The position numbers and the translations under genes were made by a program. Shown piece by piece: positions 940 through 61,674 of a stretch of 64,000 nucleotides of DNA (position 1 is the first letter of the stretch; every line of letters begins with the position of its first letter). Under the pieces are notes generated by a model that was not told the origin of the DNA, did not search any database, and worked only from the letters and a program-made list of their open reading frames with translations. The stretch covers positions 6,939 to 70,938 of the IMG/VR virus record IMGVR_UViG_2700989400_000004; one strand, 5' to 3'. The DNA comes from a virus (taxonomy: Duplodnaviria > Heunggongvirae > Uroviricota > Caudoviricetes).

Positions 940-1136
940 GGTTTTATTTTCCTGTCAGCAGTTCCGGTTTTATTCCTGCACGAATACATAGTTCAGAAAA
1001 GCCTTCTACCGTACTTACAATTTCATTATTTCGCAGTCGGCATTGTGATTTCACTTTCCCTTTATCCAGGTAAACCAGTACGCGCCCGGTGAAATCATCT
1101 GGCACATTCAGGGTAATTGTCATTGTTGCTGGCTGA

Positions 1137-1502
1137 TTACCCATGACTTCCCCCCTGAATGATCCGGTAATCGCAACGGGTCAGCAGTTCGCTAAATTCC
1201 GGCAGTGTTCCGAAACAGCAATCATCACGCAGCCGTTCGCGGGATACCTCGACGCCGTTTTCGTAGTGACTCACCATGCGTCCGGTAAAATGCAGATCAT
1301 CATCGTGATGGTTCGTTAACGGCTTAATAAGTCGCGCACGTTCTGCCAGTTCCAGCAATGCTTCAACGCTTCCGGCAATTGCACCATCCGGCAGGTGATA
1401 ATTACTTACCACGCGTCCATTCTCCACGTTAACCAGTAGCTGCTCGGTGAATTTCTCACGAAACTGAATGCTGTTAAGGTCAGAAATTGACAGGTTATGC
1501 AT
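1137..1502 (-). CDS. hypothetical protein (121 aa)
   Basis: ATG at 1502 preceded by AGGAGG; start overlaps stop of upstream gene (ATGCATAA). Confidence 0.5.
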   Translation of the reverse strand: MHNLSISDLNSIQFREKFTEQLLVNVENGRVVSNYHLPDGAIAGSVEALLELAERARLIKPLTNHHDDDLHFTGRMVSHYENGVEVSRERLRDDCCFGTLPEFSELLTRCDYRIIQGGSHG

Positions 1503-1860
1503 GGTGCACCTCCTGGCGAATACGGGCAGCGAATACCATCACGCAGCCATCAGGAGATTGCTGACGCGCTTCCTGTTCGCTGGTGGCCTCGATGTGAATT
1601 ACGCGCGGTTGTGCTGTGCTCAGGGCGATAAAACGCCAGATAAAATTGTTCTCGCATTTCTGAATAAACAGCGTGTTTTCTTCGCGCCCTTTCCATGTTG
1701 CCGAGATATAGCCCATGTCATTGAGCATCTCGCAGGCATCAACCAGCGTATCAGCGGCTACGTGTACAGTGTTTTTACCGTCAGCTATGCAATCACGGTG
1801 CACCGCCAGGAAGGTGTATATAAATTTAGGGTGAGTTTGGGTATGCTGTGTTCCAGCCAT
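1495..1860 (-). CDS. hypothetical protein (121 aa), internal start of the long 1495..3081 frame
   Basis: ATG at 1860 with GAGGT 7 nt upstream; protein-like translation MAGTQHTQTHPKFIYTFLAVHRDC...; the frame upstream of 1860 is low-complexity. Confidence 0.45.
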   Translation of the reverse strand: MAGTQHTQTHPKFIYTFLAVHRDCIADGKNTVHVAADTLVDACEMLNDMGYISATWKGREENTLFIQKCENNFIWRFIALSTAQPRVIHIEATSEQEARQQSPDGCVMVFAARIRQEVHHA

Positions 1861-1925
1861 AATCGTTACCTCGTTTAACGGTTTGGTTAGACGCCCTGCA
1901 TGTGTGCCACCACTGCGGGGCGTTG

Positions 1926-1960
1926 CTGTATATACACCACAATCATTAGTGTATATACAG
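1926..1960. promoter_or_regulatory. operator-like palindrome in divergent promoter region
   Basis: Perfect 12-bp inverted repeat CTGTATATACAC (1926-1937) / GTGTATATACAG (1949-1960) with 11-bp spacer, between divergent genes ending 1860 and starting 2051; further ACACACC/GGTGT repeats at 2000-2030. Confidence 0.4.
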
Positions 1961-2050
1961 ATTAGATTTAAGTGTGCTACAGTGTCAAGTGTTTTATCAA
2001 CACACCTTTTGGTGTAATGTGTACACACCTCAAAATAACCGGACATTCTG

Positions 2051-2356
2051 ATGGCAACAGGAAACATCAACAGCAGATCGCAAATGAAAAATATCCGCTT
2101 CCCCCATGATGTAATCGAGGAAATGGAAAATTCGAAAACGGAAGGGGAAACAATAGCCGCTTTCGTGATTACAGCCGTTCGCGGTGAAATCGCCCGCCGC
2201 CAGGCAGAAGGAAGCGGAGAAAATCCCCTGGTTTCTTCGCTCGATGCACTGGCGCAGGTGGAAAAAATCGGTGTCAAAGCAGCCGAGGAGATCGGGCAAC
2301 TCGTCACCGTCGCGCGTGAAGAACTCCAGCGGCGCAAGGCCAAAGAACAGGAGTAA
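2051..2356 (+). CDS. small regulator-like protein (possible ribbon-helix-helix), 101 aa
   Basis: Protein-like ORF (…NIRFPHDVIEEMEN…EIGQLVTVAREELQRRKAKEQE); N-terminal beta-strand/helix pattern resembles RHH proteins; weak RBS. Confidence 0.4.
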   Translation: MATGNINSRSQMKNIRFPHDVIEEMENSKTEGETIAAFVITAVRGEIARRQAEGSGENPLVSSLDALAQVEKIGVKAAEEIGQLVTVAREELQRRKAKEQE

Positions 2357-3073
2357 CCATCACCAGCGCCGTGGTGTGAGGAACTACGGTGCATCGTTTT
2401 ACAGGGCAGCGCCATGACCAACAAAGAATCAACCAATACACCATCACCGGCACGGAAAAGACAGCGCAGAAAGATAGCGTACGAGCATGAGTCAGACAGA
2501 TTCGCGCCCTGTGCGTTTATCCTTGAGAAATTCCTTAAAGAGTACAGGCGCACAAAAATGGGGTCGCATACCTGGAAAACATCGCGGCATGGCGATGTTA
2601 AAGAGCAGGAATAGCCCACCAGCAAGCCAGCATATTCACCATAATGACCCTCAGTTAAACCTAGAGTCATTGGTGCAAAGCTGACACATTGCCCACCAGC
2701 CGCAAATGTGGCATTGTTGGTGATGCGTTCAAGTATGTAGCTTTTCCACTGGCGGCTCTCTGCGGTCGCCTTTGTTTTATCCAGAACGAAATCAGACATC
2801 AGATTGATCAGCACCTGGCGACCTGACAAAATCGCATCAGTCGCGCCACCAGCAGTATTTTTTGCTTTCCGGACAGCTTGGCCAACTGCATTTTGCAGCA
2901 AAATATTCTGCATTTCTGGCTTACTGTGATAACAGTGATCAGCGCCTTCACTCTGTACGACCACAACGCTATAATCTGCCTCGTAGACAGTAAGCAATAT
3001 GGCGCAGTAAGCGACTTGTTCACAAAGGCGCTCCGGCAACGGGGCGCTTTTTCTTTTTGTAACGGTCAGAGCA

Positions 3074-3874
3074 TTACACATGGCTGTTTTCCTCCATGCG
3101 ACGGGCTAACCAACGCTGCGAAAGACGAATTAATTCAGCTTTCCGCTGGTGGTAGTCCTGGCCTAACTCAATCAGCGTGATATTGCTCTGCTCAAGGTAA
3201 GAAAGATGCTCAAGCTGCAACGTGCTCATGTGGTCGCGTGGTTCGCCTGTGATGCCGTTCGCCTGCGCCCACTGTTTTGCAGTCATGCCACCCAGCACGA
3301 TACGCGCCAGCATATTGGCTTCCGTGGTGTAGTGGTGCTGTAGAGTGTTTTTACCCAGCTCAGCCCGGTACGCCTCCAGCGCGGCACACATTGGCTTAAA
3401 GTAGCTGGCAACTGTGATACGGGCTTTCAGTTCCCGGCGTAACACTGCGGAACGCACTGGCGCTACCTTGTGTAGCTCCTCCTCGCATTTGATAAAGTAC
3501 TGACGAACGGCGCGGCCCTGTTCGGTGCGTTCGACCATCGCCAGTTCTTTCGCCATGTTCACTGTGATGATGTACTCAAGAGCTGTTTGCTGGCGAGATT
3601 TTGCGCTCACCGGATCGGGTCGGCTCAAATATTCAACAACCTCATAATCCACGCCTTCCGTGAACCCGTATTCTTCAATGCGCCCCTTGATCCACGAACG
3701 GAAAACGCGCCCTACACCTAACGCCTTATGTAACGCTCTGGCGCTAACAATAGTGGTTTCACGCCCACCAATAACGCCGGAAATAACCGGAATAATTTCA
3801 GCGAAATTTTGCAGATTCTGTTTTTCAGGCCGAACGAAGCCCCGCCCCTGTACAGGCGTATATCCAGTATTCAT
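3074..3874 (-). CDS. phage antirepressor-like protein (Ant/KilAC-type)
   Basis: 266-aa ORF with N-terminal motif ALHKALGV…FRSWIK…YGFTEGVDY typical of phage antirepressor N-domains; sits downstream of alpA in the island. Confidence 0.5.
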   Translation of the reverse strand: MNTGYTPVQGRGFVRPEKQNLQNFAEIIPVISGVIGGRETTIVSARALHKALGVGRVFRSWIKGRIEEYGFTEGVDYEVVEYLSRPDPVSAKSRQQTALEYIITVNMAKELAMVERTEQGRAVRQYFIKCEEELHKVAPVRSAVLRRELKARITVASYFKPMCAALEAYRAELGKNTLQHHYTTEANMLARIVLGGMTAKQWAQANGITGEPRDHMSTLQLEHLSYLEQSNITLIELGQDYHQRKAELIRLSQRWLARRMEENSHV

Positions 3875-3926
3875 GGTTAAATCTCTGTATTAGTGGATGG
3901 GAGGCGGCTGTGTGCCGCCAGCCTGA

Positions 3927-4115
3927 TTAGTGAACTGCCTCGCGGCTGTCCTTCCATGCCAGAACTTCGGATAAAGACCAGCCAACGGAACGACCACCGA
4001 GTTTACGCCGTGATGGGAATTGTCCGGCTTTTTCCAGGCGGTAGCGGCATGAACGGCTCAGGCCTGTAAGTTGCTGACATTCTTTTTCACGTATAAAGCG
4101 ATCTGTGCTTAACAC
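3927..4115 (-). CDS. alpA: AlpA-family phage transcriptional regulator
   Basis: 62 aa, GTG start with AGGGGGA SD; motif LTGLSRSCRYRLEKAGQFPSRRKLGGRSVGWSLSEVLAW matches AlpA/Vis HTH family; immediately downstream of integrase. Confidence 0.7.
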   Translation of the reverse strand: MLSTDRFIREKECQQLTGLSRSCRYRLEKAGQFPSRRKLGGRSVGWSLSEVLAWKDSREAVH

Positions 4116-4478
4116 AATTCCCCCTTTGTTGTTTCTTAAAGAGTCATTGGGTGGATTATTGGGTTGGGTCGGATTGTGTCAGGGTGTTTATGGAATGGCA
4201 AACACTGGTGGCGGTCGTTTTACAGAAGTGGGGTAATGAGAATAAAAACTTTTTTAATTCATTGTGATGCAGTAGCGTAAAATTCTGTTTTTACGCCCTT
4301 TTTTACATGCTTTTAAGAGTGATTCGCCAATGTACAAAAAGCCAGTAAAACGACTGAAAATCAACTTTTTAGGGTGTCGGTCAGATGATAATCAAGTTTG
4401 TTCCAGATTGTTCGCCGTTGTTCGTCGTGGTGTCTCGTTGTTTCACGTTGTGTCCGTTCTGAAAAATCGCGAAAAAAA

Positions 4479-5729
4479 TTATATTTCTCTGGCTATTGGC
4501 AGTGTGGTTACGTTTTCGTGAGCACCTGCCAGTATCTCTAATCGCTCTGTCCACATATCCAGCGCGTTACGTTTCGCATCAATATAGCGGGAGTGGTTAT
4601 AGACTCGTTGCATCCCTGGCATCTGGTGGGCGGTAAGTTGCTCGACAATATGCGGATCCACGCCTAAATCGTTCAGCATCGTGGTAAACGTGCGCCGTAT
4701 ATCGTGCAGGGACCAGTGAGGATGGTTTAATTTTTTGTGCGTAAATCTGCCGTATTGTGACACGCTGGCTTCCTGTTTCAGTTCTCCGAGTAATAACCCT
4801 GTGTGCCTGTTCTGCTCCACCAGTTGCGTGACGAACGGCAAAATGCTTTCCGGTATTGGCCTGAATATGGCGACCTTCGTTTTGCTGTGTTCTTTCGGTA
4901 CCGTCCAGAGCATTTCCTTAAAATCCCACTCCCTGATCTCCGACAGCCTCAGTTCTCCAGTTCGGCAGCCAAACACAATCAGGAGGCGGATTAGCGCGCT
5001 GTAGTAGGGCGGGAATATTTTTTTATCCAGCGCCTGTAATAATTCGCCCAGTTCTTTGTTACTAAGCACGCGTTCGCTTATGCCTGGCTTTTTGCCAACG
5101 TCCACCACGTTGAGATCATCCAGAACGTTACTGACTGCGTAGCGACGTTTTCGGCAGAACTTAAGCGCCTGTTTACACGCCTGCATCATGTGACCAGACG
5201 TTACAGGGGATTTTTTGCGTATCCGGTCAAAACAGGCCAGCCAGTGACGTAACTCGCATTTATCCAGTGGCATATTGCCAATATGCTGTATGACGTGATT
5301 ATTCAGGCGGCTGTTCAGGGAGACGTAATCGACACGGTTTTCCTTTACGTGCATTTCCAGCCAGTAGCTGATCGCATCACCCACCGTTACCGGCTTTAGT
5401 GCTTCCTGTATGGAGTAATTAAGCTCATGGCGTGGATTTTTTCCTTCTGCCAGCCATGCGCGACACTGTGCCGCTTTTTCCCTGGCTGCTTTCAGGCTCA
5501 GATCAGGATAATTTCCCAGCTTCAGGCGTTCCGGTGATACCAGGCGTCCAGCTCCTGCCCTGTAGGTGAAATACCAGGTTAACAAGCCGCTGGTGGAATG
5601 CCTGACGCTCAGGTTTCCACCGTCATTAAGAAATGTGGTTTTTGGGGCTGGTGTGCCGTTGATTTTTCTTAGCTGTGTATCGCTCAGTTTGTTAAGTGCT
5701 CTGCTCATAATTTTGAATCCGGTCATCAC
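4479..5729 (-). CDS. int: P4-type tyrosine integrase (site-specific recombinase)
   Basis: 416-aa ORF; N-terminal arm-type domain (LSDTQLRKINGTPAPK…YPDLSLKAAREKAAQCRAWLAEGKNP) and C-terminal catalytic domain (…HDIRRTFTTML…); GTG at 5729 or ATG at 5726. Confidence 0.85.
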   Translation of the reverse strand: MMTGFKIMSRALNKLSDTQLRKINGTPAPKTTFLNDGGNLSVRHSTSGLLTWYFTYRAGAGRLVSPERLKLGNYPDLSLKAAREKAAQCRAWLAEGKNPRHELNYSIQEALKPVTVGDAISYWLEMHVKENRVDYVSLNSRLNNHVIQHIGNMPLDKCELRHWLACFDRIRKKSPVTSGHMMQACKQALKFCRKRRYAVSNVLDDLNVVDVGKKPGISERVLSNKELGELLQALDKKIFPPYYSALIRLLIVFGCRTGELRLSEIREWDFKEMLWTVPKEHSKTKVAIFRPIPESILPFVTQLVEQNRHTGLLLGELKQEASVSQYGRFTHKKLNHPHWSLHDIRRTFTTMLNDLGVDPHIVEQLTAHQMPGMQRVYNHSRYIDAKRNALDMWTERLEILAGAHENVTTLPIAREI

Positions 5730-5972
5730 AATTAACTACACCATTAACTACACCGATCATTGCACAAGGGGGTACAACGTGGAACAAATTGGAACAAGAA
5801 AAATTGCAATGAGTTTAAAAATCAAAAACATAATGAACAACGTGGCACATTATGAAACAGCAAAAAACACTAATTTATAAAATCACGATATTAATAATGT
5901 AACTTATATTTTCGTGAAATCTGTCACTGAAGAAAATTGGCAACTAAAGGTTAAAACCGTTATAACACAGTC

Positions 5973-6066
5973 ACCGGCGCAGAGGAGACAATGCCGGATT
6001 TAAGACGCGGATGCACTGCTGTGTGTACTGTAGAGTCTGGCGGATGTCGACAGACTCTATTTTTTT
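5973..6066 (+). ncRNA. mcaS: small regulatory RNA McaS (IsrA)
   Basis: ~94-nt unit convergent with abgR as in E. coli K-12; GGA-containing 5' region (AGAGGAGACAAUG); intrinsic terminator stem AGAGTCTG/CAGACTCT (6033-6058) plus T7 run; -10-like TATAAC at 5961-5966. Confidence 0.65.
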
Positions 6067-6074
6067 ATGCAGTT

Positions 6075-6983
6075 TTAACTTTGCAGATAGCCGCATTCTC
6101 GCCGGAATTGCGTGATTAATGACGCGGTCAGTGGTGTCTGGCGACTATCACGCCGCTGAATCAAATAATAGGCCGCTTTCGGTAAAATTTCGCTAACCGG
6201 CAACATCACCAGCCCCTGTCCGTGCAAGGGATCGCAGCCCATTTCTTCAGGCAGTATGCTGAGAAAATCGCTTTTTGCCACCAGACTGATACAGGCTGAG
6301 AACGTCTCGCAGACTACACCGACCTGTGGCGTTTGCGCCTGATCGTCAAGCAATTCACTCAACTGTTTGTAGTAGCTGCCGTGTGGCGTCGGCATTGTCC
6401 AGCTGTAATCCAGTAACTGTTTGATCGAACGGGCACCAATGGCGGGGTGTCCCGGGCGGCAAAAGATCGCGAATTGCTTTTCCAGTAATTTCTCAAAAGT
6501 AAATTCGTGGTCGTACGGTCCCTGATAATAGGTATTGATGGTGAAATCCAATTCTCCCTGACGCAATTCATTAATCATCGACACCAGTTGCCCTTCCATA
6601 ATGCGTACTTTTACCTGCGGATGCTGCTGATGAAAACGAGATATGACAGCTGGCATCAGACTGCGGGAAATACTGGCCCCCATGCCGATATTAATCTGCC
6701 CTGCCAGTTGCCCTTGTCGTTGGCGAATATCCTCTTGGGCTGCGCGCAGTTCTTCAAGAATAAGACTGGCGTGCTGATAAAAACTTTCACCGGCATCAGT
6801 TAACGTCACGCCTTTACTACGGCGAAAAAAGAGTTGCGCCGCTAATCCTTCTTCCAGCTCCTGAATAGATTTACTCAGTGCCGGTTGCGACATATTCAAC
6901 ATTCGGCTCGCTCCGCGAATGCTGCCCTGACGAGCCACTTCAACAAAAGCACGAATTTGATGAATTTTTACCTGAAAAGCCAT
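6075..6983 (-). CDS. abgR: LysR-family transcriptional regulator AbgR
   Basis: 302-aa ORF with N-terminal LysR HTH (…IRGASRMLNMSQPALSKSIQELE…) and substrate-binding domain; divergent from the abgA operon. Confidence 0.9.
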   Translation of the reverse strand: MAFQVKIHQIRAFVEVARQGSIRGASRMLNMSQPALSKSIQELEEGLAAQLFFRRSKGVTLTDAGESFYQHASLILEELRAAQEDIRQRQGQLAGQINIGMGASISRSLMPAVISRFHQQHPQVKVRIMEGQLVSMINELRQGELDFTINTYYQGPYDHEFTFEKLLEKQFAIFCRPGHPAIGARSIKQLLDYSWTMPTPHGSYYKQLSELLDDQAQTPQVGVVCETFSACISLVAKSDFLSILPEEMGCDPLHGQGLVMLPVSEILPKAAYYLIQRRDSRQTPLTASLITQFRRECGYLQS

Positions 6984-7158
6984 GACGCCACCGATAACCG
7001 TTATTTATCAGACCAAAGAAACTGGCATCTACTTTAATGCAGATGATTGTGTCAGGGTAATTTATGAACGGTTAAAACTGTGAAAAATCAGTTAGTGATA
7101 AGTAAAAACTATCGCTACGTGAACCGGGTCACACTTTTTACTGATGACGGGAAAGGTT

Positions 7159-8469
7159 ATGGAGTCTTTGAATCAATTTGTTAATTCGCTTGCCCCAAAA
7201 TTATCGCACTGGCGACGTGATTTTCATCACTATGCAGAGTCTGGCTGGGTGGAATTCCGCACTGCCACCCTTGTTGCGGAAGAATTGCAGCAGCTCGGCT
7301 ATTCACTGGCGCTGGGCCGCGAAGTAGTTAATGAAAGTAGCCGGATGGGACTACCTGATGAACTCACTCTACAACGCGAATTCGAGCGCGCTCGTCAACA
7401 GGGTGCGCTAGCACAATGGATTGCGGTTTTTGAAGGTGGTTTCACTGGTATCGTCGCCACCCTGGATACCGGTCGCCCCGGTCCGGTGATGGCTTTCCGT
7501 GTCGATATGGACGCGCTGGATCTCAGTGAAGAGCAGGATGTCAGCCATCGCCCCTACCGCGACGGTTTTGCGTCATGTAACGCCGGAATGATGCATGCCT
7601 GTGGTCATGATGGACATACCGCCATTGGGCTTGGGCTGGCGCATACCCTTAAACAATTCGAGTCCGGACTACATGGCGTCATCAAACTGATTTTTCAGCC
7701 TGCAGAGGAAGGTACGCGTGGCGCGCGGGCGATGGTCGATGCAGGTGTCGTAGATGATGTTGATTATTTTACTGCCGTGCACATTGGCACTGGCGTACCT
7801 GCGGGCACCGTGGTGTGCGGCAGTGATAATTTTATGGCAACCACCAAATTTGACGCGCACTTCACCGGTACCGCCGCTCACGCAGGCGCAAAACCAGAAG
7901 ACGGTCACAATGCCTTGTTGGCGGCAGCACAAGCCACTCTTGCACTGCATGCAATCGCCCCGCACAGCGAAGGAGCTTCCAGAGTAAACGTGGGCGTTAT
8001 GCAGGCAGGAAGCGGTCGTAACGTTGTTCCTGCCTCGGCGTTGCTGAAAGTGGAAACACGCGGGGCCAGCGACGTCATTAATCAATATGTTTTTGACCGT
8101 GCACAACAAGCGATTCAGGGCGCAGCAACCATGTATGGTGTCGGCGTTGAAACTCGTCTGATGGGTGCAGCTACCGCCAGTTCTCCTTCGCCGCAATGGG
8201 TCGCATGGTTGCAAAGTCAGGCGGCTCAGGTCGCGGGGGTCAATCAGGCCATTGAACGTGTTGAAGCGCCTGCGGGTTCCGAAGATGCCACATTAATGAT
8301 GGCCCGCGTGCAGCAACATCAAGGGCAAGCCTCCTACGTGGTGTTTGGCACACAGCTGGCGGCAGGTCATCACAACGAAAAATTCGATTTTGACGAGCAG
8401 GTTCTCGCTATTGCCGTCGAAACGCTGGCGCGCACCGCGCTCAATTTTCCCTGGACGCGAGGTATCTGA
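7159..8469 (+). CDS. abgA: p-aminobenzoyl-glutamate hydrolase subunit A (M20 peptidase family)
   Basis: Start at MESLNQFVNSLAPKL with GGGAAAGG SD; M20 metal-binding motifs (…MHACGHDGH…); stop overlaps abgB start. Confidence 0.9.
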   Translation: MESLNQFVNSLAPKLSHWRRDFHHYAESGWVEFRTATLVAEELQQLGYSLALGREVVNESSRMGLPDELTLQREFERARQQGALAQWIAVFEGGFTGIVATLDTGRPGPVMAFRVDMDALDLSEEQDVSHRPYRDGFASCNAGMMHACGHDGHTAIGLGLAHTLKQFESGLHGVIKLIFQPAEEGTRGARAMVDAGVVDDVDYFTAVHIGTGVPAGTVVCGSDNFMATTKFDAHFTGTAAHAGAKPEDGHNALLAAAQATLALHAIAPHSEGASRVNVGVMQAGSGRNVVPASALLKVETRGASDVINQYVFDRAQQAIQGAATMYGVGVETRLMGAATASSPSPQWVAWLQSQAAQVAGVNQAIERVEAPAGSEDATLMMARVQQHQGQASYVVFGTQLAAGHHNEKFDFDEQVLAIAVETLARTALNFPWTRGI

Positions 8470-9914
8470 TGCAGGAAATCTATCGTTTTATCGACGATGC
8501 GATTGAAGCCGATCGCCAACGTTATACCGATATTGCCGATCAAATCTGGGATCATCCAGAAACACGTTTTGAAGAGTTCTGGTCAGCGGAGCATCTGGCT
8601 TCGGCGCTGGAATCTGCAGGCTTCACCGTTACCCGCAACGTAGGCAATATCCCAAATGCCTTTATTGCTTCGTTTGGTCAAGGCAAACCGGTTATCGCCC
8701 TGCTGGGAGAATATGACGCCCTGGCAGGTTTAAGTCAGCAAGCAGGTTGCGCGCAACCTACATCCGTGACGCCCGGTGAAAATGGTCACGGTTGCGGACA
8801 CAATTTGCTGGGAACCGCCGCCTTTGCCGCTGCAATAGCCGTCAAGAAATGGCTGGAACAATATGGGCAAGGCGGCACAGTGCGCTTTTATGGTTGTCCT
8901 GGCGAAGAAGGCGGCTCGGGTAAAACGTTCATGGTCCGCGAGGGGGTATTTGATGATGTGGATGCGGCACTCACCTGGCACCCGGAAGCCTTTGCCGGTA
9001 TGTTCAATACACGCACGCTGGCAAACATTCAGGCATCATGGCGCTTTAAAGGGATCGCAGCACATGCCGCGAATTCCCCTCATTTGGGACGCAGCGCCCT
9101 TGATGCCGTAACGTTGATGACCACTGGCACCAACTTCCTCAACGAACATATTATTGAAAAAGCGCGCGTACACTATGCCATCACAGATAGCGGCGGGATC
9201 TCGCCCAACGTGGTCCAGGCGCAGGCAGAAGTGCTTTATCTTATCCGTGCCCCCGAAATGACCGACGTGCAGCATATTTATGATCGGGTCGCCAAAATCG
9301 CCGAATGTGCGGCATTGATGACCGAAACCACGGTTGAATGCCGCTTCGACAAAGCCTGTTCCAGTTATCTCCCGAATCGCACCTTAGAAAATGCCATGTA
9401 CCATGCCCTATCCCATTTTGGTACCCCGGAATGGAACTCCGAAGAACTGGCTTTTGCGAAACAAATTCAGGCTACGCTCACCCCCAACGATCGGCAAAAC
9501 AGTCTGAATAATATCGCCGCAACCGGTGGCGAAAACGGCAAGGTTTTTGCACTACGTCATCGTGAAACGGTACTGGCGAATGAGGTCGCTCCATATGCCG
9601 CCACCGATAACGTGCTTGCGGCATCGACTGATGTCGGCGACGTCAGTTGGAAACTGCCTGTTGCCCAGTGTTTCAGCCCCTGTTTTGCCGTCGGTACACC
9701 GCTACATACGTGGCAACTGGTTAGCCAGGGGCGAACATCTATTGCTCATAAAGGAATGCTGCTGGCGGCGAAAACTATGGCAGCAACCACAGTCAATCTC
9801 TTCATTGATTCAGGGCTATTGCAAGAATGCCAACAAGAGCATCAGCAAGTTACGGACACGCAACCGTATCACTGCCCTATCCCGAAAAACGTGACACCGT
9901 CACCTTTAAAATAA
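8469..9914 (+). CDS. abgB: p-aminobenzoyl-glutamate hydrolase subunit B (M20 peptidase family)
   Basis: 481-aa ORF with M20 signature (…GHGCGHNLLGT…), coupled to abgA. Confidence 0.9.
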   Translation: MQEIYRFIDDAIEADRQRYTDIADQIWDHPETRFEEFWSAEHLASALESAGFTVTRNVGNIPNAFIASFGQGKPVIALLGEYDALAGLSQQAGCAQPTSVTPGENGHGCGHNLLGTAAFAAAIAVKKWLEQYGQGGTVRFYGCPGEEGGSGKTFMVREGVFDDVDAALTWHPEAFAGMFNTRTLANIQASWRFKGIAAHAANSPHLGRSALDAVTLMTTGTNFLNEHIIEKARVHYAITDSGGISPNVVQAQAEVLYLIRAPEMTDVQHIYDRVAKIAECAALMTETTVECRFDKACSSYLPNRTLENAMYHALSHFGTPEWNSEELAFAKQIQATLTPNDRQNSLNNIAATGGENGKVFALRHRETVLANEVAPYAATDNVLAASTDVGDVSWKLPVAQCFSPCFAVGTPLHTWQLVSQGRTSIAHKGMLLAAKTMAATTVNLFIDSGLLQECQQEHQQVTDTQPYHCPIPKNVTPSPLK

Positions 9915-9950
9915 CAACAACAACGCAAACACAACAACCGAGGAATGCCC

Positions 9951-11396
9951 ATGAGTATGTCATCCATACCGTCGTCCTCCCAATCCGGGAAGCTCTATGG
10001 CTGGGTCGAAAGAATTGGTAACAAGGTTCCCCATCCTTTTTTGCTCTTTATCTATTTGATAATCGTACTCATGGTGACGACGGCAATTTTGTCAGCCTTT
10101 GGCGTCAGTGCGAAAAACCCGACCGATGGTACGCCGGTGGTGGTGAAAAACCTGCTCAGTGTGGAAGGATTACACTGGTTTTTACCCAATGTGATTAAAA
10201 ACTTTAGCGGTTTTGCTCCACTTGGAGCGATCCTGGCGCTGGTTTTAGGTGCCGGCCTAGCGGAGCGCGTCGGCTTACTGCCAGCGCTAATGGTTAAAAT
10301 GGCATCGCATGTTAATGCCCGCTACGCCAGTTATATGGTGCTGTTTATTGCTTTTTTCAGCCACATTTCTTCCGATGCGGCGTTAGTGATCATGCCACCG
10401 ATGGGTGCGCTGATTTTTCTGGCGGTGGGCAGGCATCCAGTTGCAGGTTTACTGGCTGCCATTGCAGGCGTAGGTTGCGGCTTTACGGCTAATTTACTGA
10501 TTGTCACAACCGACGTGTTGCTGTCGGGGATCAGCACGGAAGCGGCGGCTGCGTTCAATCCGCAAATGCACGTCAGTGTAATTGATAACTGGTATTTTAT
10601 GGCCAGCTCCGTAGTCGTACTGACGATTGTTGGCGGCCTGATAACCGACAAAATCATCGAGCCACGATTAGGTCAATGGCAGGGAAACAGCGATGAGAAA
10701 CTGCAGACATTGACCGAAAGTCAGCGTTTTGGTTTACGCATAGCAGGTGTCGTATCGCTACTTTTTATTGCTGCGATCGCGCTGATGGTGATCCCGGAAA
10801 ACGGGATATTGCGCGATCCGATTAATCACACCGTGATGCCATCACCCTTTATTAAAGGTATCGTGCCACTGATCATTCTTTTTTTCTTTGTTGTCTCGCT
10901 GGCTTATGGCATCGCTACCCGCACAATTCGACGTCAGGCGGATTTACCGCATTTAATGATTGAACCGATGAAAGAGATGGCGGGATTTATCGTGATGGTT
11001 TTTCCCCTCGCCCAATTTGTCGCCATGTTTAACTGGAGCAACATGGGGAAATTCATCGCCGTGGGGCTGACCGATATACTTGAAAGTTCAGGGCTTAGCG
11101 GCATCCCGGCGTTTGTCGGTCTGGCGTTGCTTTCCTCTTTCTTATGCATGTTTATTGCCAGCGGTTCCGCAATCTGGTCGATTCTGGCCCCCATTTTCGT
11201 ACCAATGTTTATGCTACTTGGCTTTCACCCGGCATTTGCGCAAATCCTCTTTCGTATTGCCGACTCATCCGTATTGCCTTTAGCGCCGGTATCTCCTTTT
11301 GTTCCACTGTTTCTTGGATTCCTGCAACGCTACAAACCAGACGCAAAACTGGGTACTTACTATTCGTTAGTCTTGCCCTATCCGCTTATCTTTTGA
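9951..11396 (+). CDS. abgT: p-aminobenzoyl-glutamate transporter AbgT
   Basis: Start MSMSSIPSS… with GAGGA SD; polytopic membrane protein; C-terminal end abuts the prophage boundary. Confidence 0.85.
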   Translation: MSMSSIPSSSQSGKLYGWVERIGNKVPHPFLLFIYLIIVLMVTTAILSAFGVSAKNPTDGTPVVVKNLLSVEGLHWFLPNVIKNFSGFAPLGAILALVLGAGLAERVGLLPALMVKMASHVNARYASYMVLFIAFFSHISSDAALVIMPPMGALIFLAVGRHPVAGLLAAIAGVGCGFTANLLIVTTDVLLSGISTEAAAAFNPQMHVSVIDNWYFMASSVVVLTIVGGLITDKIIEPRLGQWQGNSDEKLQTLTESQRFGLRIAGVVSLLFIAAIALMVIPENGILRDPINHTVMPSPFIKGIVPLIILFFFVVSLAYGIATRTIRRQADLPHLMIEPMKEMAGFIVMVFPLAQFVAMFNWSNMGKFIAVGLTDILESSGLSGIPAFVGLALLSSFLCMFIASGSAIWSILAPIFVPMFMLLGFHPAFAQILFRIADSSVLPLAPVSPFVPLFLGFLQRYKPDAKLGTYYSLVLPYPLIF

Positions 11397-48602: not shown

Positions 48603-49091
48603 TTAGTCATTATTTGCACCTCTTGCGTATAGCTCTTTACGTGTTATCTGCGTGAAAATACATTCATGTTTGCACCGTGGATGCCAGATCAAGAACAAGC
48701 TCCCTTTATTGTTTCCGCTTGCTGGCTTACCCGTCGCAGCATTAATAAACGCCAGCCGCCCGCGCGTGATTAAGCGACATTCGCTTGCCGTCTCCAGGCC
48801 GTTCATAAACCAGTTAACAGAGATATCAGCGGGCAACAACATTACACAGCCAATATGATTTCGGTGATGTTCCATCGCTGCCTTATCTACGAATGGCCCC
48901 GGATTCGAATATGGCGGATTAAGCCAGACATATTCACCAGGCATTGCTACCGCTCCCCACGGATAATGGAGTGTGTCCATCTCTTCGGTTATATATCGCG
49001 GAACTAATGCGTTTGCCTTGTTTGCCGCCACATCCGCGACGAATTCGAATTCACGGTCCATTCCTCTAAAACGGGTTTTGGCGTTTGCCAT
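48603..49091 (-). CDS. phage-type DNA N6-adenine methyltransferase (Dam-like)
   Basis: …EYVWLNPPYS… catalytic NPPY motif in a ~160-aa phage Dam-type protein. Confidence 0.6.
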   Translation of the reverse strand: MANAKTRFRGMDREFEFVADVAANKANALVPRYITEEMDTLHYPWGAVAMPGEYVWLNPPYSNPGPFVDKAAMEHHRNHIGCVMLLPADISVNWFMNGLETASECRLITRGRLAFINAATGKPASGNNKGSLFLIWHPRCKHECIFTQITRKELYARGANND

Positions 49092-50120: not shown

Positions 50121-50658
50121 TTACCTCCCGTGGTTTTCATGATACCCGTACTCGATTTCAGCTTTACGCCTCGCTTCGATCGCTTCATCTATGCTATCTG
50201 AGTAGCATAGATATTTTTTCTTTCCGTCAACGGTAATATAAGATCTCCATTTCTGAGTTAATTTATCCCAATAAACACCCGTGCATCCAGAAGTGTTATT
50301 TTTCTGCTTAGCTCTATTCTTTGCGTTTTCCTGTCTCGTCACTATTCGAAGGTTATCAAGCCTATTATTAAGGCGATTATGTCTATATGGTCTATTTGAT
50401 AGCCTTCCGGGATTGGGCCGTTGTGCATCTCCCATATTATCCTGTGAACGCAATACCTTTTCCCGCAAAACATAAACCCCTGTACCCACCCTCATACAGA
50501 GTACTCCCTGCTACGTCTCCGGCTTTAACCCTGAAACCAGTAGGTTTCTTCCAAATTAGATTGACTCCGTCGTAATAAAACCACTCTCGCCAGTCAATAG
50601 CGTCCATTGTGTTTTCCCTCTTCCCAAGCGAAATACCCGACAAAACCAACCAGAACAA
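50121..50658 (-). pseudogene. HNH-AP2 homing-endonuclease-like gene split by a frameshift
   Basis: 50121..50495 carries HNH (…YRHNRLNNRLDNLRIVTRQEN…) and AP2-like (…GVYWDKLTQKWRSYITVDGKKKYLCYSD…) motifs; the N-terminal-like part is in another frame (50437..50658). Confidence 0.4.
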
Positions 50659-56571: not shown

Positions 56572-57639
56572 ATGAAGTGGTTTAAGCATGATAGCGATGC
56601 GAACCGCGATGAAAAACTTCAAAACGTTTTGCTCGATTATGGTCTGGAAGGATACGGTCTTTATTGGTACTGCCTCGAACTAATCACTTATGACGTAGAT
56701 CAGCATAATCTCACTTTCGACCTTCGACATGACGCGAGAATCATCGCGCGAAATGTCGGTTCGACTGAAAAACGTGTAGAAGAAATGATGAAATACTTCA
56801 TCGAAATTGGTTTATTTGAATGTTCTCAAGGCCATATAACATGCTTAAAGTTATTGAAAAGGCTGGACCAATCAATGACTTCTAAGAGTGGTTACAGAGC
56901 TGCTATAAATGCAGCAAAAGAACAATTCAAATTAGAAAAGTTAATCAACCCAACGCCAAAAGGTCATGATAGGGTCATGACCGGGTCATGGCAGGGTCAT
57001 GAATTAGAATTAGAAGAAGAATTAGAAGAAGAAATAGAAAAAGATATATACACTTCGTGTATTAGCGAAAATGAACAAAAAACGGTCAATCAGGGGGGTG
57101 ACTTTCAGATAAGCGAAGCCGCCTTGCGTTGTCTGGCTTTCTACAACGAAAAAGCAGGATGCAAATGTCGTGACGCTAAACCATTCATCGAACTACTGAC
57201 AGAAACAAAAACACGTAAGGCATATACGGAGGAAGAGATCACATTAGTAATTGAGTGGGCTTTAACACAATGGCATAGCCGGAGTGGAGTACCTAAGCCT
57301 ATCAACATTTGCCGGGTAACTAAGTTTGATGGGTATCTGGCTGATGCTGAACAATGGCGAAGAGTTACAGCTACTGTTAACGCTGCTGTCGTGGTATCAG
57401 CATTTAACCAGACATTTGACGGCCTGTTACCGCCTGCCGAACTGGATCGGGATTTGGAACGTAAGATCTATGCGTTCACTGACTACCTGAAAGACAAAAG
57501 CATCACTGGCTTTATCGCTTACTTTGAAGCGTTCAAAAACACGGCTTCAGATTTTTACTTCGGCAATGGCTTTACCGCGACACTTGATTTCCTACTTAAA
57601 CCAAAAACGCTACGTGACACGCGCGCGGGCGTTCTTTGA
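56572..57639 (+). CDS. replication initiator / replisome organizer (O-like)
   Basis: N-terminal MKWFKHDSDANRDEKL… typical of phage replisome-organizer N-domains; conserved phage replication C-terminal region; contains iterons. Confidence 0.75.
   Translation: MKWFKHDSDANRDEKLQNVLLDYGLEGYGLYWYCLELITYDVDQHNLTFDLRHDARIIARNVGSTEKRVEEMMKYFIEIGLFECSQGHITCLKLLKRLDQSMTSKSGYRAAINAAKEQFKLEKLINPTPKGHDRVMTGSWQGHELELEEELEEEIEKDIYTSCISENEQKTVNQGGDFQISEAALRCLAFYNEKAGCKCRDAKPFIELLTETKTRKAYTEEEITLVIEWALTQWHSRSGVPKPINICRVTKFDGYLADAEQWRRVTATVNAAVVVSAFNQTFDGLLPPAELDRDLERKIYAFTDYLKDKSITGFIAYFEAFKNTASDFYFGNGFTATLDFLLKPKTLRDTRAGVL
56961..57050 (+). repeat. putative replication origin: four iterons plus AT-rich tract inside O-like gene
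   Basis: GGGTCATG repeated four times at 11-bp spacing (56962-57001), then aattagaattagaagaagaattagaagaagaaatagaaaaag. Confidence 0.6.
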
Positions 57640-57772: not shown

Positions 57773-57874
57773 ATGAACGGTAAACGCATGTTCGCCCTGG
57801 CTTTCGCGATCGCGATGGCTATCGCTGTTAACGTGATGCTGTTCGGCGGGTTGTACCTGCTTGCGCATCCATAA
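57773..57874 (+). CDS. small hydrophobic membrane peptide (33 aa)
   Basis: MNGKRMFALAFAIAMAIAVNVMLFGGLYLLAHP; GAGGGAGG SD; preceded by long imperfect inverted repeat (57691-57743). Confidence 0.4.
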   Translation: MNGKRMFALAFAIAMAIAVNVMLFGGLYLLAHP

Positions 57875-58025
57875 CTACCCAGCCTGATTAAATTCGATTT
57901 TAAGCCACTTTTTAGCGCCACTGACGCAATAAGACACTGCAACATGTGCAAACGTGTTACGCGGTGGGATTTTGCGTTGTAGCGCGTCTGAGGCGTTATA
58001 TAGAAAATTAAGAAAGGAGGTATAT

Positions 58026-59081
58026 ATGATTGCTACTTATCATATGAAACTCAATTGTAAGGACACGCAATTACTGTCTGTTAATAATCTGGTTTCTGAA
58101 CTTAAGATTGATAGACTTAAATCATTTGTTAAATATTCTGATCTTTACGGATTTGAGGAATACAAGGATTTTATTATTGATGGTGATGATGTGTATATCA
58201 CACCTATAACGTTTATTAGATTCGTTACACCTGGTAAATATAGACATTATGAATATAATGAAAATTGGGTTAAGCCAGTTATTGAATCTTGTGGATTAGT
58301 TGACTTGCAAGATGTCTTTAATAAATATTCAAATAATACCAAAAAAGATAGTCCTTACGCTTATAATTATATTTTATGGTGTAACAACTATGTTGAAACG
58401 AGTGATACTCCTGGTCGATGTTCTGTGTATGTGTCAAAAGAAGATGCTGAAAAGTATAAAAAATGGTTGTTCGTTACTCGCGGAGTATCAATAGAAAAAC
58501 TATGGGTAAGGTTGTTCCATTCAAGCGATATTGCAGATCCAGATACGTTTTTAGCTGAACACCTCAATAATGATGAGTTTACCATTGATTTAAATATTGA
58601 ATATTTTATAGTTAAAACAAATTATGGATATGAAAGGTATATTAGCGATAAGATAGCAGAAAAGTATCATATATGGGGTGAAAGTAAAGGGCTTAGTAAT
58701 AATTTTGAGTGCGGGAATTATAACGACATAGAAAACTTTATTAAATTAAAAAGCGACAAGGATGTAATTGAGGAAATAAAAAAGGAATGCGACGCGAAAT
58801 TATCAGAAATGAGCGGTCATTGTAAAAATATGATTAGAAAGCGTTATGAACACGCTGGTTTAACTATGTATGAAAAACTAAAGGGTGTTAAATTAATAAG
58901 GCAATATCCTGTTAATGTTGCTGGCAATAAGTATTTTATCGATGGCTACGATCCTGTGAATAATGTTGCTGTAGAAATTGATGAATCACATCACAAACGG
59001 CAAGTAAAAAGCGATGCGATAAGACAAAAATGCATTGAAGATTATTTGGGGTGCAAGTTTTTTCGTTGTGCTATATCCTGA
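58026..59081 (+). CDS. AT-rich gene: protein with C-terminal restriction-endonuclease-like domain (candidate defence/abortive-infection protein)
   Basis: 351 aa from MIATYH…; perfect AGGAGG SD; visibly AT-rich versus flanks; C-terminus …YFIDGYDPVNNVAVEIDESHHKRQVKSDAIRQKCIEDYLGCKFFR… resembles DUF559/Vsr-type endonuclease fold. Confidence 0.6.
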   Translation: MIATYHMKLNCKDTQLLSVNNLVSELKIDRLKSFVKYSDLYGFEEYKDFIIDGDDVYITPITFIRFVTPGKYRHYEYNENWVKPVIESCGLVDLQDVFNKYSNNTKKDSPYAYNYILWCNNYVETSDTPGRCSVYVSKEDAEKYKKWLFVTRGVSIEKLWVRLFHSSDIADPDTFLAEHLNNDEFTIDLNIEYFIVKTNYGYERYISDKIAEKYHIWGESKGLSNNFECGNYNDIENFIKLKSDKDVIEEIKKECDAKLSEMSGHCKNMIRKRYEHAGLTMYEKLKGVKLIRQYPVNVAGNKYFIDGYDPVNNVAVEIDESHHKRQVKSDAIRQKCIEDYLGCKFFRCAIS

Positions 59082-59115
59082 TGTATACAAAATGTAAACC
59101 GGAGGAAATAACGTT

Positions 59116-60234
59116 ATGTCACAAAGAAAGATCAGCGATGAACAACTGATCGCTGAGTACGAGAAGGGGAAAACTTACAAGCAAATAGCCGAAGAATATG
59201 GAATGGCAAAACGCAACGTCGAACGGCTGGGCGCACGGCTGGCGAAGCGCGGTTTAATATCCACACGCCGCGCGCCTGGTTTTGGTGTCAATGGTGAATC
59301 ATTGCTCGTTGATAAGGATGGCAATGTGATTATGCGCTGGATTAAAACAGCACGTGATCGCGATGAAATGGAAAGGCTAATGCAAGCGGCTTGCGATGCA
59401 TTCACTGAAGAGATACCCCGCGCGGAGGCCGTGCCAGTGCCTGAGATTGATTTCCAAAAAAGCCTGGCCCTTTATCCGGTGTTCGATCTTCATATCGGTG
59501 CACTTGCGCACAAGGCGGAATGCGGCGAGAGCTACGACACCGGGATCGCTGAACGCGTACTAAATGATTTCTTCGACTACGCGGTAGGCACTGCGCCAAT
59601 GTCTGAAAAGGCTGTTTTGCTGTTGGGTGGGGATCTACTTCATTCTGATGGGATGATCCCGGTTACACCAACAAGCGGTCATATTCTTGATCAGGATAGT
59701 CGCTACGCAAAACTTGTTTACGTGGCGATCCGGTCGGTCCGGCGGGCGGTCGGGAAGATGTTACTAAATCATAAGGACGTCGAGATCCAGGTGCTTAGCG
59801 GAAATCATGATCAATCGGGGATGATTTGGCTACGTGCGGCGCTGGCGGCTTTTTACGAAGATGAACCACGCGTGACGGTTGATGTGTCCCCTGCTATCGT
59901 CCACCACACGCAGTACGGCAAAACATTCCTTGCCTATCATCACGGGCACACTATCAAAAAACCCGAAAATTTGTTGGCGGCCTGCATCTCTGACTGGCGG
60001 GAGGATTTCGGCAAGTCGGCGGCGGTTTACGCCCACTGCGGGCACTGGCACCACCAACGGCTAATTGAATCATCGTTAGGCGTTGTTGAGTATCACGGCA
60101 CGTTAGCGGGTAAAGACGCTTATTCAACGAATGGCGGCTGGCGGTCGCGGCGGCTGGCGGCGGTAATAATTTACAGCCCGGATTATGGGGAAATCGGGCG
60201 CTTTGTTTATTACCCTGAATATCCCATTTTGTAA
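59116..60234 (+). CDS. HTH domain fused to calcineurin-like metallophosphoesterase
   Basis: N-terminal HTH (…KTYKQIAEEYGMAKRNVERL…); phosphoesterase motifs DLHIG, GGDLLH, GNHD, GHWHH; CCGGAGG SD. Confidence 0.6.
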   Translation: MSQRKISDEQLIAEYEKGKTYKQIAEEYGMAKRNVERLGARLAKRGLISTRRAPGFGVNGESLLVDKDGNVIMRWIKTARDRDEMERLMQAACDAFTEEIPRAEAVPVPEIDFQKSLALYPVFDLHIGALAHKAECGESYDTGIAERVLNDFFDYAVGTAPMSEKAVLLLGGDLLHSDGMIPVTPTSGHILDQDSRYAKLVYVAIRSVRRAVGKMLLNHKDVEIQVLSGNHDQSGMIWLRAALAAFYEDEPRVTVDVSPAIVHHTQYGKTFLAYHHGHTIKKPENLLAACISDWREDFGKSAAVYAHCGHWHHQRLIESSLGVVEYHGTLAGKDAYSTNGGWRSRRLAAVIIYSPDYGEIGRFVYYPEYPIL

Positions 60235-60252: not shown

Positions 60253-61674
60253 ATGGTGACTGAGCAAATAAACTCATTACGCCAGGAACGGGAAGCGGCT
60301 GTGATAGGCGGCCTCCTGTTGGGCGGGCTTACCCCTAACGCGCAAGATGTTCTTGCCACGCTCGATCCTGAAGTCTTCACCATTCCACTATATAAACGAG
60401 CGTTTGAGATCATCCGGGCGCAAGCCAGAAACAGAAACCTTATTGACGCGCTGATAGTCGGTGATGAAATCGGTAGCGAAAATTTCATCCCGTTAATGCA
60501 AACGGCGCGGTCGTGTCCATCTGCTGCCAACCTGAAGGGGTACGCCACGCTATTGCAGGAGGAATACCAGCGGCGGCAAATGTTGGAACTGATGGAGGAT
60601 ATCCGCTACAAACTGGAAACCGGGACGCTAGAAGTTGTCAGAGAGACGATGAAATATTTTGATTCCCGGTATTCAAAATTAAAAACAACGAAAGACAAGA
60701 TTATTCCGGTGCTGTTGCGCGACGCGGTACAGGAATATACGGAAGTCTTAAGTAAACGTATGGAATGTGGTGTCAATTCTGACAACATCAAAACAGGGAT
60801 CGAACCACTCGACGAAATGTTAGGCGGTATTAACGCTACTGATCTGGTGCTTATCGCCGGACGCCCTGGGTCTGGTAAATCGGCGTTGGCGTTGGCAATT
60901 GCCCGCGCGGCGGCTGAACGTCCATACCCTGGCGGAGAAGGCCAACGGGTCGGCGTTTTGCTGTTCACGCTTGAAATGTCGCTCGATCAGATGACTGAAC
61001 GCGCGATCGCTGGCGCTGGGAACTTATCAACGGATTGCCTACGTAATCCGGTAAAACTGGACGACGAAGGATGGGCGCACGTTGCGCAGGGAATGAGCGC
61101 ACTTGCCGATCTCGACGTGTGGATTGTTGACGCATCGCAGTTAACGGTCGAGGAAATACGCGCCACCGTCGAACGGATGAAACAGGACCATCCTAACCTG
61201 GGAATGGTAATGATTGACTACATCGGGTTAATGAAGCTGGCTAAGGCCGAACGTCATGATCTCGCGGTAGGGCAATTGTCGTGGTCATTGAAAATGATGG
61301 CGAAAGAGTTGCGCGTGCCAGTGGCGGCGCTGGCGCAATTATCCCGCCGCGTTGAAGAACGACCGAACAAGCGCCCGAACAATTCCGATCTGCGTGATTC
61401 CGGTAATCTGGAACAAGACGCGGACCGGATCATCATGGTCTACCGAGACGGCTACTACAACGAACAATCAGTTGCCCGCGAATACATGGAGATCATCGTT
61501 TCAAAAAACCGTCACGGGAAAACGGGGACTGTTTACCAGCGGTTTGACGATAACGGCAATATCATTCCATGCGACCAGGCCCGCGCCGCGTCCGCTTGCA
61601 TCCAGTCAATGCAACAACGTCCGGCGACAAGCCGATTCTCCCCACGAAATAACCAGAATAACGCATCTTTTTAA
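60253..61674 (+). CDS. DnaB-family replicative helicase
   Basis: Walker A …LIAGRPGSGKSALALAIA…, …DSGNLEQDAD…, …KNRHGKTG…; CCGGAGG SD. Confidence 0.85.
   Translation: MVTEQINSLRQEREAAVIGGLLLGGLTPNAQDVLATLDPEVFTIPLYKRAFEIIRAQARNRNLIDALIVGDEIGSENFIPLMQTARSCPSAANLKGYATLLQEEYQRRQMLELMEDIRYKLETGTLEVVRETMKYFDSRYSKLKTTKDKIIPVLLRDAVQEYTEVLSKRMECGVNSDNIKTGIEPLDEMLGGINATDLVLIAGRPGSGKSALALAIARAAAERPYPGGEGQRVGVLLFTLEMSLDQMTERAIAGAGNLSTDCLRNPVKLDDEGWAHVAQGMSALADLDVWIVDASQLTVEEIRATVERMKQDHPNLGMVMIDYIGLMKLAKAERHDLAVGQLSWSLKMMAKELRVPVAALAQLSRRVEERPNKRPNNSDLRDSGNLEQDADRIIMVYRDGYYNEQSVAREYMEIIVSKNRHGKTGTVYQRFDDNGNIIPCDQARAASACIQSMQQRPATSRFSPRNNQNNASF

Follow-up and report, generated by a model that had tools for sequence, protein, structure and literature searches.

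A Vsr/DUF559-type nuclease gene as optional cargo in the replication module of an mEp021-like E. coli prophage: a possible homing-endonuclease-like element

We analysed a 64,000-nucleotide stretch of viral DNA (hereafter the window; positions 6,939 to 70,938 of the IMG/VR record IMGVR_UViG_2700989400_000004, Caudoviricetes), and in particular one open reading frame (ORF) in its replication module, which encodes a protein of 351 amino acids (aa). The gene is an acquired, precisely bounded, optional cargo cassette of an E. coli prophage. Judged from sequence profiles and a structural model, the C-terminal ~82 aa of its product have a Vsr/DUF559-type PD-(D/E)XK fold with an intact predicted active site, and both halves of the ORF are under purifying selection. 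We tentatively read it as a free-standing homing-endonuclease-like gene, i.e. the gene of a selfish site-directed nuclease, occupying a hot-spot for cargo genes in an mEp021-like (mEpimmI) E. coli prophage. The features of the cassette are the following:

57988..59083, plus strand: cargo cassette of 1,096 bp (short leader, ribosome-binding site (RBS), 351-aa ORF), absent or replaced in relatives
58015..58020, plus strand: Shine-Dalgarno motif AGGAGG, 5 nt before the ATG, read directly off the sequence
58026..59081, plus strand: focal ORF, 351 aa (WP_057697155.1), with ATG at 58026 and TGA stop at 59079-59081
58026..58829, plus strand: N-terminal region, aa 1-268, an orphan sequence, acidic and aromatic-rich
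58758..58883, plus strand: long predicted helix, aa 245-286, entering the nuclease domain (AlphaFold secondary structure)
58833..59078, plus strand: predicted Vsr/DUF559-type PD-(D/E)XK nuclease module, aa 270-351 (Pfam, PDB profile matches, AlphaFold, Foldseek, homologous modules)
58941..59015, plus strand: predicted catalytic motif D306; E317-I-D319-E320-S-H322-H323; D330 (AbaSI alignment, residue identities checked), with its codons at 58941-43, 58974-76, 58980-85, 58989-94 and 59013-15

The cargo cassette and its slot

A preliminary description had characterised this ORF as AT-rich acquired cargo with a perfect AGGAGG RBS, situated between an O-like initiator gene and a DnaB-like helicase gene and coding for a DUF559/Vsr-type C-terminus behind an N-terminal part without a recognised match. 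These traits are borne out below, with one correction. The gene does lie within the replication module, but it is separated from DnaB by a gene for a 372-aa protein with helix-turn-helix (HTH) and metallophosphoesterase domains.

The GC content of the ORF is 31.4% (25% at third codon positions, GC3), compared with 42% for the initiator gene and 52% for both the downstream 372-aa gene and DnaB. The mean of the 64-kb window is 47.3%, and the ORF is its lowest-GC stretch of 1,056 bp (z = -3.9), which refutes a uniform composition. A mechanical ORF listing offered GTG at 57954 as an alternative start for the same frame; the ATG at 58026 was preferred because of its RBS and because the RefSeq models of homologues have 351 and 353 aa. 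A second copy of the gene was not found within the window.

The part of the window from 40,000 to 64,000 is ~84-86% identical to temperate coliphages of the mEp021 group (mEp010, mEp013, mEp044 and others). This group has been described as the ‘mEpimmI’ Nus-dependent non-lambdoid phages, which are common in the human gut (PMC11893012); the cargo slot is not discussed in that paper. The boundaries of the cassette were drawn from an alignment with eight relatives. In those with an empty site, i.e. phage MagusPhagus (L003) and E. coli MFDS1019527 (L007), homology to the window ends at 57987 and restarts at 59084. Relatives that are otherwise collinear with the window thus carry the cassette, lack it or have other genes in its place. 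It is 92-98% identical to its counterpart in E. coli M15 (L001), whereas the left flank is only 82-88% identical, with 82% immediately left of the junction. Because the identity of the cassette exceeds that of the flank, it has moved independently between diverged backbones.

To survey the occupants of the slot, 80 IMG/VR loci were anchored on the downstream 372-aa gene. Domains were assigned with Pfam, and the counts refer to 37 close relatives:

15 of 37 (four of them shortened): gene with three CapR/DUF4379 zinc fingers and a T5orf172 domain
8 of 37: Rha-type gene
6 of 37: gene with Bro-N and ANT domains
5 of 37: slot empty
3 of 37: focal gene

None of the alternative occupants in these 37 relatives is a known defence gene. 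HNH_3 genes adjoin the anchor as well. They are found directly upstream of it in four more distant relatives (L068, L070, L071 and L075), and in the close relative L013 one such gene (7329-7823) lies between the anchor gene and DnaB. The shortened zinc-finger/T5orf172 genes (166-240 aa; L024, L031, L038 and L046) may reflect decay of the cargo or variation in repeat number. In addition, a segment of ~140 bp follows the cargo gene on its 3′ side in L001 (~5482-5640) and L006 (~3840-3994) and has no counterpart in the window at 59084-59097. It is common to a genome with DUF559 cargo and a genome with zinc-finger/T5orf172 cargo, and apparently forms another small mosaic unit where the slot ends on the right.

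The protein WP_057697155.1 carries the RefSeq label ‘hypothetical protein’. Its cluster at 90% identity has 78 members, all named ones from E. coli, and several of them are titled ‘DUF559 domain-containing protein’. A word-indexed search of 5.8 billion proteins recovered full-length homologues in two clusters (78 and 3 members), from E. coli records only, and the length is kept at 351-353 aa even in diverged backbones. The strength of selection was estimated as the ratio of nonsynonymous to synonymous substitution rates (dN/dS). Relative to the homologue in E. coli Ecol_244 (L002), which is 79% identical, the value is 0.08 for the whole ORF, across 20% nucleotide divergence, with 0.10 for the N-terminal and 0.03 for the C-terminal part; the values for the ORF span 0.08-0.15. 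A variant of the protein truncated to 156 aa (P0131) occurs on five contigs and may represent decay of the cargo.

The gene is co-oriented with the early-right operon, and 34 nt separate it from the gene that follows. In a consensus scan, the sole plus-strand promoter-like site just 5′ of the ORF (9/12) overlaps the RBS and the start codon and could be a weak promoter; four further plus-strand sites with 9/12 lie inside the ORF. Altogether 18 promoter-like sites were found, compared with 9.9 expected, a number that is inflated in AT-rich DNA. No plus-strand terminator was found between 59081 and 59116. The scan thus yielded no convincing promoter or terminator belonging to the gene itself, which does not qualify as an autonomous moron. 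It would be expressed together with the replication genes after induction, and not in the lysogen. Eight sigma-70-like sites on the minus strand within the ORF (58168-58960), three of which score 10/12, are most likely a by-product of base composition; they might also drive spurious antisense transcription or bind H-NS.

The nuclease module and the orphan N-terminal region

The assignment of the C-terminus rests on several types of searches. Pfam DUF559 (PF04480) matches aa 283-339 with E = 2.3e-4 and passes marginally (21.4 bits versus a gathering score of 20.6), and the family PvuRts1I-like_N reaches 20.4 bits, under its cut-off of 27. We built a module profile from the last 82 aa of the focal protein and five relatives. 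In the PDB, this profile matched AbaSI (3.5e-5) and PvuRts1I (1.2e-3), and its hidden Markov model (HMM) alignment with AbaSI spans AbaSI residues 24-82. The defence database PADLOC contributed an mREase_II match (4e-8) that is confined to the nuclease part, covering positions 37-101 of the 294-position profile.

AlphaFold modelled aa 275-349 with predicted local distance difference test (pLDDT) values of 79-87, in the order helix, three strands, helix, strand. Foldseek matched the model to AbaSI (probability 1.0), PvuRts1I, the catalytic domain of the homing endonuclease I-Bth0305I (3R3P; probability 0.97, TM 0.46), R2 endonucleases and Vsr (1VSR), with ranks 1-5 held by restriction enzymes of the AbaSI/PvuRts1I type. 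The Foldseek E-values are weak (0.03-2.5) because the remainder of the query model is unreliable.

The predicted active site was compared with that of AbaSI residue by residue. In the HMM alignment, D306 corresponds to AbaSI D61, and E317-I-D319-E320-S-H322-H323 corresponds one-to-one and with equal spacing to AbaSI E72-V-D74-E75-G-H77-H78; upstream, K272 and E275 have AbaSI K23 and E26 as their counterparts. The module alignments show no variation at seven residues, i.e. D306, E317, D319, E320, H323, D330 and R333. The AbaSI mutants D61A and E75A are inactive (PMC4081097). Because the site matches AbaSI residue for residue and the key residues are invariant, the focal nuclease is very probably active, as far as this can be judged from sequence.

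In sequence and fold, the closest characterised relatives of the focal nuclease are therefore PvuRts1I and AbaSI (PDB 4OKY, 4OQ2 and 4PAR), which are type IV restriction enzymes dependent on 5-hydroxymethylcytosine (5hmC). They share with it the identically spaced D...ExDExHH pattern and the K..E residues of the upstream helix. The focal protein differs from them in that its nuclease is C-terminal and its partner region is an orphan. Vsr, DUF559 and DUF2726 have been grouped in one PD-(D/E)XK clade (PMC3424549), so that E. coli Vsr is a further relative. However, the Vsr family of Pfam is not among the matches of the focal protein, its gene is not associated with a Dcm methyltransferase gene, and E. 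coli Vsr is a housekeeping repair gene, whereas the focal gene is a phage cargo cassette.

The module is not restricted to the focal protein. A search with the module profile identified 304 proteins with a homologous module, most of them phage proteins of 145-163 aa in which the N-terminus is a Rha domain, an AntA domain or nothing recognisable; stand-alone module proteins have 72-96 aa. Several fusions share the focal slot or lie directly upstream of the anchor gene, namely Bro-N plus module in the slot (mEp044 gp12), Rha plus module (P0019) and an unclassified small domain plus module (P0035; 66% identical in the module) upstream of the anchor. The modules of these Bro-N, Rha and third-domain fusions are 50-66% identical to the focal one. 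Hence one Vsr/PvuRts1I-type module is found behind at least four different N-terminal regions at the same slot position. The small Rha/Bro-N/AntA-DUF559 fusions, e.g. mEp044 gp12 and UYE95259.1 of vB_ESM-pEJ01, have the same invariant residues and occupy the focal slot in mEpimmI phages. Their annotations are ‘Rha family transcriptional regulator’ or ‘DUF559 domain-containing protein’. They differ from the focal protein in their size of 145-203 aa and in having a recognisable N-domain of a DNA-binding type (60-120 aa) instead of a region of 270 aa without detectable kinship to such domains. In the distant relative P0007, a NUMOD3-like motif, seen by eye only, is fused to the module.

The module is also present in other types of phages. 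In a strictly lytic T4-type phage of the genus Krischvirus, the neighbour of the module within the frd/td/nrdA region is an HNH gene, and Vibrio phages of 133-140 kb carry the module near a ribonucleoside-triphosphate reductase gene. Such surroundings are classic for homing endonuclease genes.

The N-terminal region (isoelectric point (pI) 5.2) has no family match in Pfam, PHROGs, NCBIfam or PADLOC, and an exhaustive phmmer search of 1.84 billion representatives returned no homologue beyond its own E. coli cluster. One phmmer match, P0128, was spurious on inspection, the protein being a tandem-repeat protein of 1,045 aa. Within aa 1-268, no HTH or NUMOD family was found with Pfam, and no SRA-like domain for binding of 5hmC or 5-methylcytosine was detected with Pfam, PADLOC, the PDB alignments or Foldseek. 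Structure prediction, which was confident for the nuclease half, did not fold this half (pLDDT 48 in the full-length run and 43 for the N-terminus alone with a cleaner alignment). The matches that Foldseek found for the N-terminal model were all meaningless (probability <= 0.09); given the low quality of this model, a divergent reader fold may have been missed.

Smith-Waterman comparisons of aa 86-165 and aa 166-245 with the N-domains of P0035 and P0110 gave z-scores of 4.5-5.5 and a common pattern G..(Y/F)xS...A..Y..W. An internal repeat or a kinship with these N-domains is unproven; profile searches of the protein database and the PDB were empty, and hhalign gave P = 0.015 and a probability of 2.9%. 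With Pfam, no N-terminal family, KilA-N included, was found in P0035 or P0110.

The N-terminal region would be the targeting or recognition part of the nuclease. Conserved and yet missed by the homology and folding tools used, it is a candidate for a new recognition domain. The nuclease domain and the gene class, i.e. phage accessory nucleases, are already known, and RefSeq labels close homologues as DUF559 proteins. New are the fusion of a Vsr/DUF559-type nuclease to a long orphan N-terminal region, and a single slot in a common group of gut coliphages that holds the same cleavage module behind several N-terminal regions.

Homing, defence and other possible roles

The homing-endonuclease-like reading would involve four steps. 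The gene would be transcribed with the early replication genes upon induction or infection. Its C-terminal Vsr/PvuRts1I-type domain would provide one Mg-dependent active site, and pairing would probably occur by dimerisation via the preceding long helix, which may be a dimerisation element; the role of the N-terminal helices of AbaSI has been described (PMC4081097). Guided by its lineage-specific N-terminal 270 aa, the enzyme would find a DNA site in cassette-less genomes of related phages. The break would then be repaired by recombination off the cassette-bearing genome, so that the cassette would be copied in (homing) or the markers of a competitor would be excluded. Four elements of this scheme are putative: that the N-terminal region binds DNA, that the enzyme cleaves, which site it targets, and that the cassette homes.

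Several results argue for this reading. An optional AT-rich gene lies between essential phage genes and is present, absent or replaced at one site, where it alternates with T5orf172 genes, and HNH_3 genes lie beside the anchor gene. The focal gene is thus optional and alternative nucleases occur at the same site, which is the operational hallmark of a free-standing phage homing endonuclease gene. In phages, different homing endonuclease genes cluster near essential genes and swap domains, and the CapR/DUF4379 zinc-finger plus T5orf172 architecture has been treated as that of homing endonuclease genes (PMC10055350). The T5orf172 genes (GIY-YIG type) of the slot follow the same modular plan, pairing a recognition part with a nuclease, and likewise cluster beside essential replication genes. 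However, both their nuclease fold and their recognition domains are unrelated to those of the focal protein, and they are thus analogues, not homologues. The shuffling of the focal nuclease module behind different N-terminal domains in the slot, and its occurrence in strictly lytic phages near HNH and nrd/td-type genes, point in the same direction. So do the intact predicted active site together with the low dN/dS values, and the lack of a convincing promoter or terminator in a gene so closely followed by the next operon gene.

The layout of the protein is a further argument. In the EDxHD homing endonucleases I-Bth0305I and phage Hef, a Vsr-like nuclease forms the C-terminus and is preceded by a non-catalytic region (PMC3239194), and the focal protein has the same domain order (aa 1-268, then the nuclease at aa 270-351). 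Like the focal gene, theirs are phage-borne and can be free-standing. The arrangement D-(17 residues)-H followed by a conserved D agrees with the published residues D196, H213 and D222 of I-Bth0305I, a correspondence taken from the numbering and not from an alignment. The focal protein differs from both enzymes in lacking a recognisable NUMOD or HTH in its N-terminus, and its gene does not lie within an intron or intein; its target cleavage and homing are putative.

Other results weigh against the homing-endonuclease-like reading. The module profile did not recover I-Bth0305I (3R3P) from the PDB even at E <= 10, and by sequence the closest characterised nucleases are the restriction enzymes AbaSI and PvuRts1I and not a homing enzyme. 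The N-terminal region, for which DNA binding is putative, is acidic and was not folded by AlphaFold, and its hhalign comparisons with Rha, Bro-N, AntA and N-domains of the P0035/P0110 type were not significant. The slot is not exclusively a site for nucleases, because in 14 of the 37 close relatives it holds Rha or Bro-ANT genes, whose usual annotation is regulator or antirepressor and not nuclease. Flank alleles exclusive to cassette-bearing genomes, a mark of co-conversion, were not found, and the flanks of the relative L004 with Rha cargo are as close to the window as those of the cassette-bearing L001. A literature search found no experimental characterisation of the focal gene or of the Rha/Bro-DUF559 fusions.

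Should the homing-endonuclease-like reading be true, the mEpimmI slot would be a compact natural experiment in the evolution of modular nucleases. The change of targets by homing-type nucleases, and their shaping of mosaic boundaries in temperate phages, would be testable in E. coli. In ICP1-like phages, such boundaries are reported to accumulate at nuclease genes (PMC10055350). If the N-terminal region were sequence-specific, it might serve as a scaffold for programmable nucleases.

Less probable, though still to be reckoned with, is a role in defence or inter-phage competition. The N-terminal region would recognise some trait of incoming DNA, e.g. a modified base as in type IV systems, or a protein of the invading phage, and the PvuRts1I-type nuclease thus licensed would cut the foreign DNA or, in abortive infection, the DNA of its own cell. 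This explanation would account for the kinship of the nuclease domain with modification-dependent restriction enzymes, both in the profile searches and in the top five Foldseek ranks, for the mREase_II match and for the occurrence of an AT-rich accessory gene in a prophage. For an acidic, aromatic-rich N-terminal region, a role in sensing or reading is at least as plausible as sequence-specific DNA binding, and the order of N-terminal reader and C-terminal nuclease is that of MspJI and AspBHI (PMC4081097).

However, the PADLOC and PDB matches are restricted to the nuclease part, and neither an SRA-like reader domain, the defining part of the PvuRts1I-type family, nor another reader domain was detected. 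No other defence family of PADLOC-DB v2 was matched, and a characteristic defence architecture was not found; PADLOC also gave no match for the neighbouring gene. A gene of the early lytic operon with neither a convincing promoter nor a convincing terminator to itself would not be expected to be expressed in the lysogen. Strictly lytic phages, in which host protection makes little sense, carry the module as well, and the alternative occupants of the slot are genes of the homing-endonuclease and Rha/Bro-ANT types. The specific function in defence or abortive infection that the preliminary description had suggested therefore found no support, and the defence-system prediction returned nothing beyond the partial mREase_II match over the nuclease domain. 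If defence were nevertheless the function, a new reader domain would be added to the modification-dependent restriction enzymes.

A combination of both ideas is unlikely, though conceivable. The N-terminal region would be a new sensor or reader of a modified base or phage protein, joined to a PvuRts1I-type nuclease in reverse domain order, and the gene would be a single-gene phage restriction or exclusion system exchanged via a hot-spot of the homing-endonuclease style. Homing and exclusion are not mutually exclusive.

We consider it rather improbable that the gene encodes an early accessory factor of the Rha/Bro/Roi-antirepressor kind or a helper of replication or recombination that acts on the DNA of its own phage or host. 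Such a protein would nick or process DNA near the origin or act by regulatory binding, and its nuclease domain would be the equivalent of the ANT or KilAC domains of other occupants. The location between the initiator and helicase genes, in the same operon and orientation, would be explained, as would the 14 of 37 slot occupants that are Rha or Bro-N plus ANT proteins; PHROGs files the N-terminal partners Rha, Bro-N and AntA of the module under transcription regulation or anti-repressor. In contrast, the empty slot in functional phages (MagusPhagus, L003) shows that its contents are not essential for replication, and the N-terminal region is unrelated to Rha, Bro-N and AntA by hhalign. The full catalytic set under strong purifying selection (domain dN/dS 0.03) argues for cleavage chemistry over binding alone.

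That the gene is a leftover of AT-rich DNA gained by horizontal transfer, decaying or without function, in which a frame happens to have stayed open, is very improbable, because the very narrow distribution, the truncated variant P0131 and the extreme base composition that would fit it are opposed by the constraint on both halves across 20% nucleotide divergence, the intact catalytic motif, the strong RBS and the length kept in diverged backbones.

Neighbouring genes and further observations

The slot is flanked by the following features:

56572..57639, plus strand: O-like initiator gene with Lin1244_N domain (Pfam), left anchor of the slot
57773..57874, plus strand: strongly hydrophobic ORF of 33 aa (MNGKRMFALAFAIAMAIAVNVMLFGGLYLLAHP) with a GGGAGG RBS, left anchor of the slot
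57915..57986, plus strand: conserved composite hairpin that runs up to the left slot junction (minimum free energy z-score -3.8 for 57870-58030)
59116..60234, plus strand: 372-aa HTH plus metallophosphoesterase gene (phrog_704, E = 1e-140), right anchor of the slot
60253..61674, plus strand: DnaB (DnaB_C, 9e-76)

The 33-aa hydrophobic ORF between the initiator gene and the slot is kept in all of the eight aligned relatives and has no Pfam family match. The metallophosphoesterase gene, whose product has its HTH at the N-terminus, always sits between the slot and DnaB, and the annotation of phrog_704 is ‘DNA repair exonuclease’. A gene for a P- or DnaC-type helicase loader was not seen in the replication module, and the 372-aa protein may for this reason be a replication accessory factor.

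The focal gene is preceded by a structured spacer of 150 bp. The hairpin at 57915-57986 is present in all relatives, those with an empty slot included. Its inner stem shows one compensatory change from A-U to C-G and several G-U changes, and a U-rich stretch follows on its 3′ side. No Rfam family matched the hairpin, which may terminate transcription or act as a regulatory RNA upstream of the helicase genes.

At the other end of the window, positions 1-11,394 are E. coli chromosomal DNA near abgRABT (99.7% identity). In the matching strains, a tyrosine recombinase gene is found in this abgR-abgABT segment. With most strains, homology stops near 11,394, which may be a prophage or island boundary.

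In the left operon, an ORF of 124 aa on the minus strand (50124-50495) reaches 24.4 bits with HNH_3, compared with a threshold of 24.8, and may be an endonuclease remnant. A gene for a phage Dam methyltransferase (48606-49091, minus strand) lies near it.

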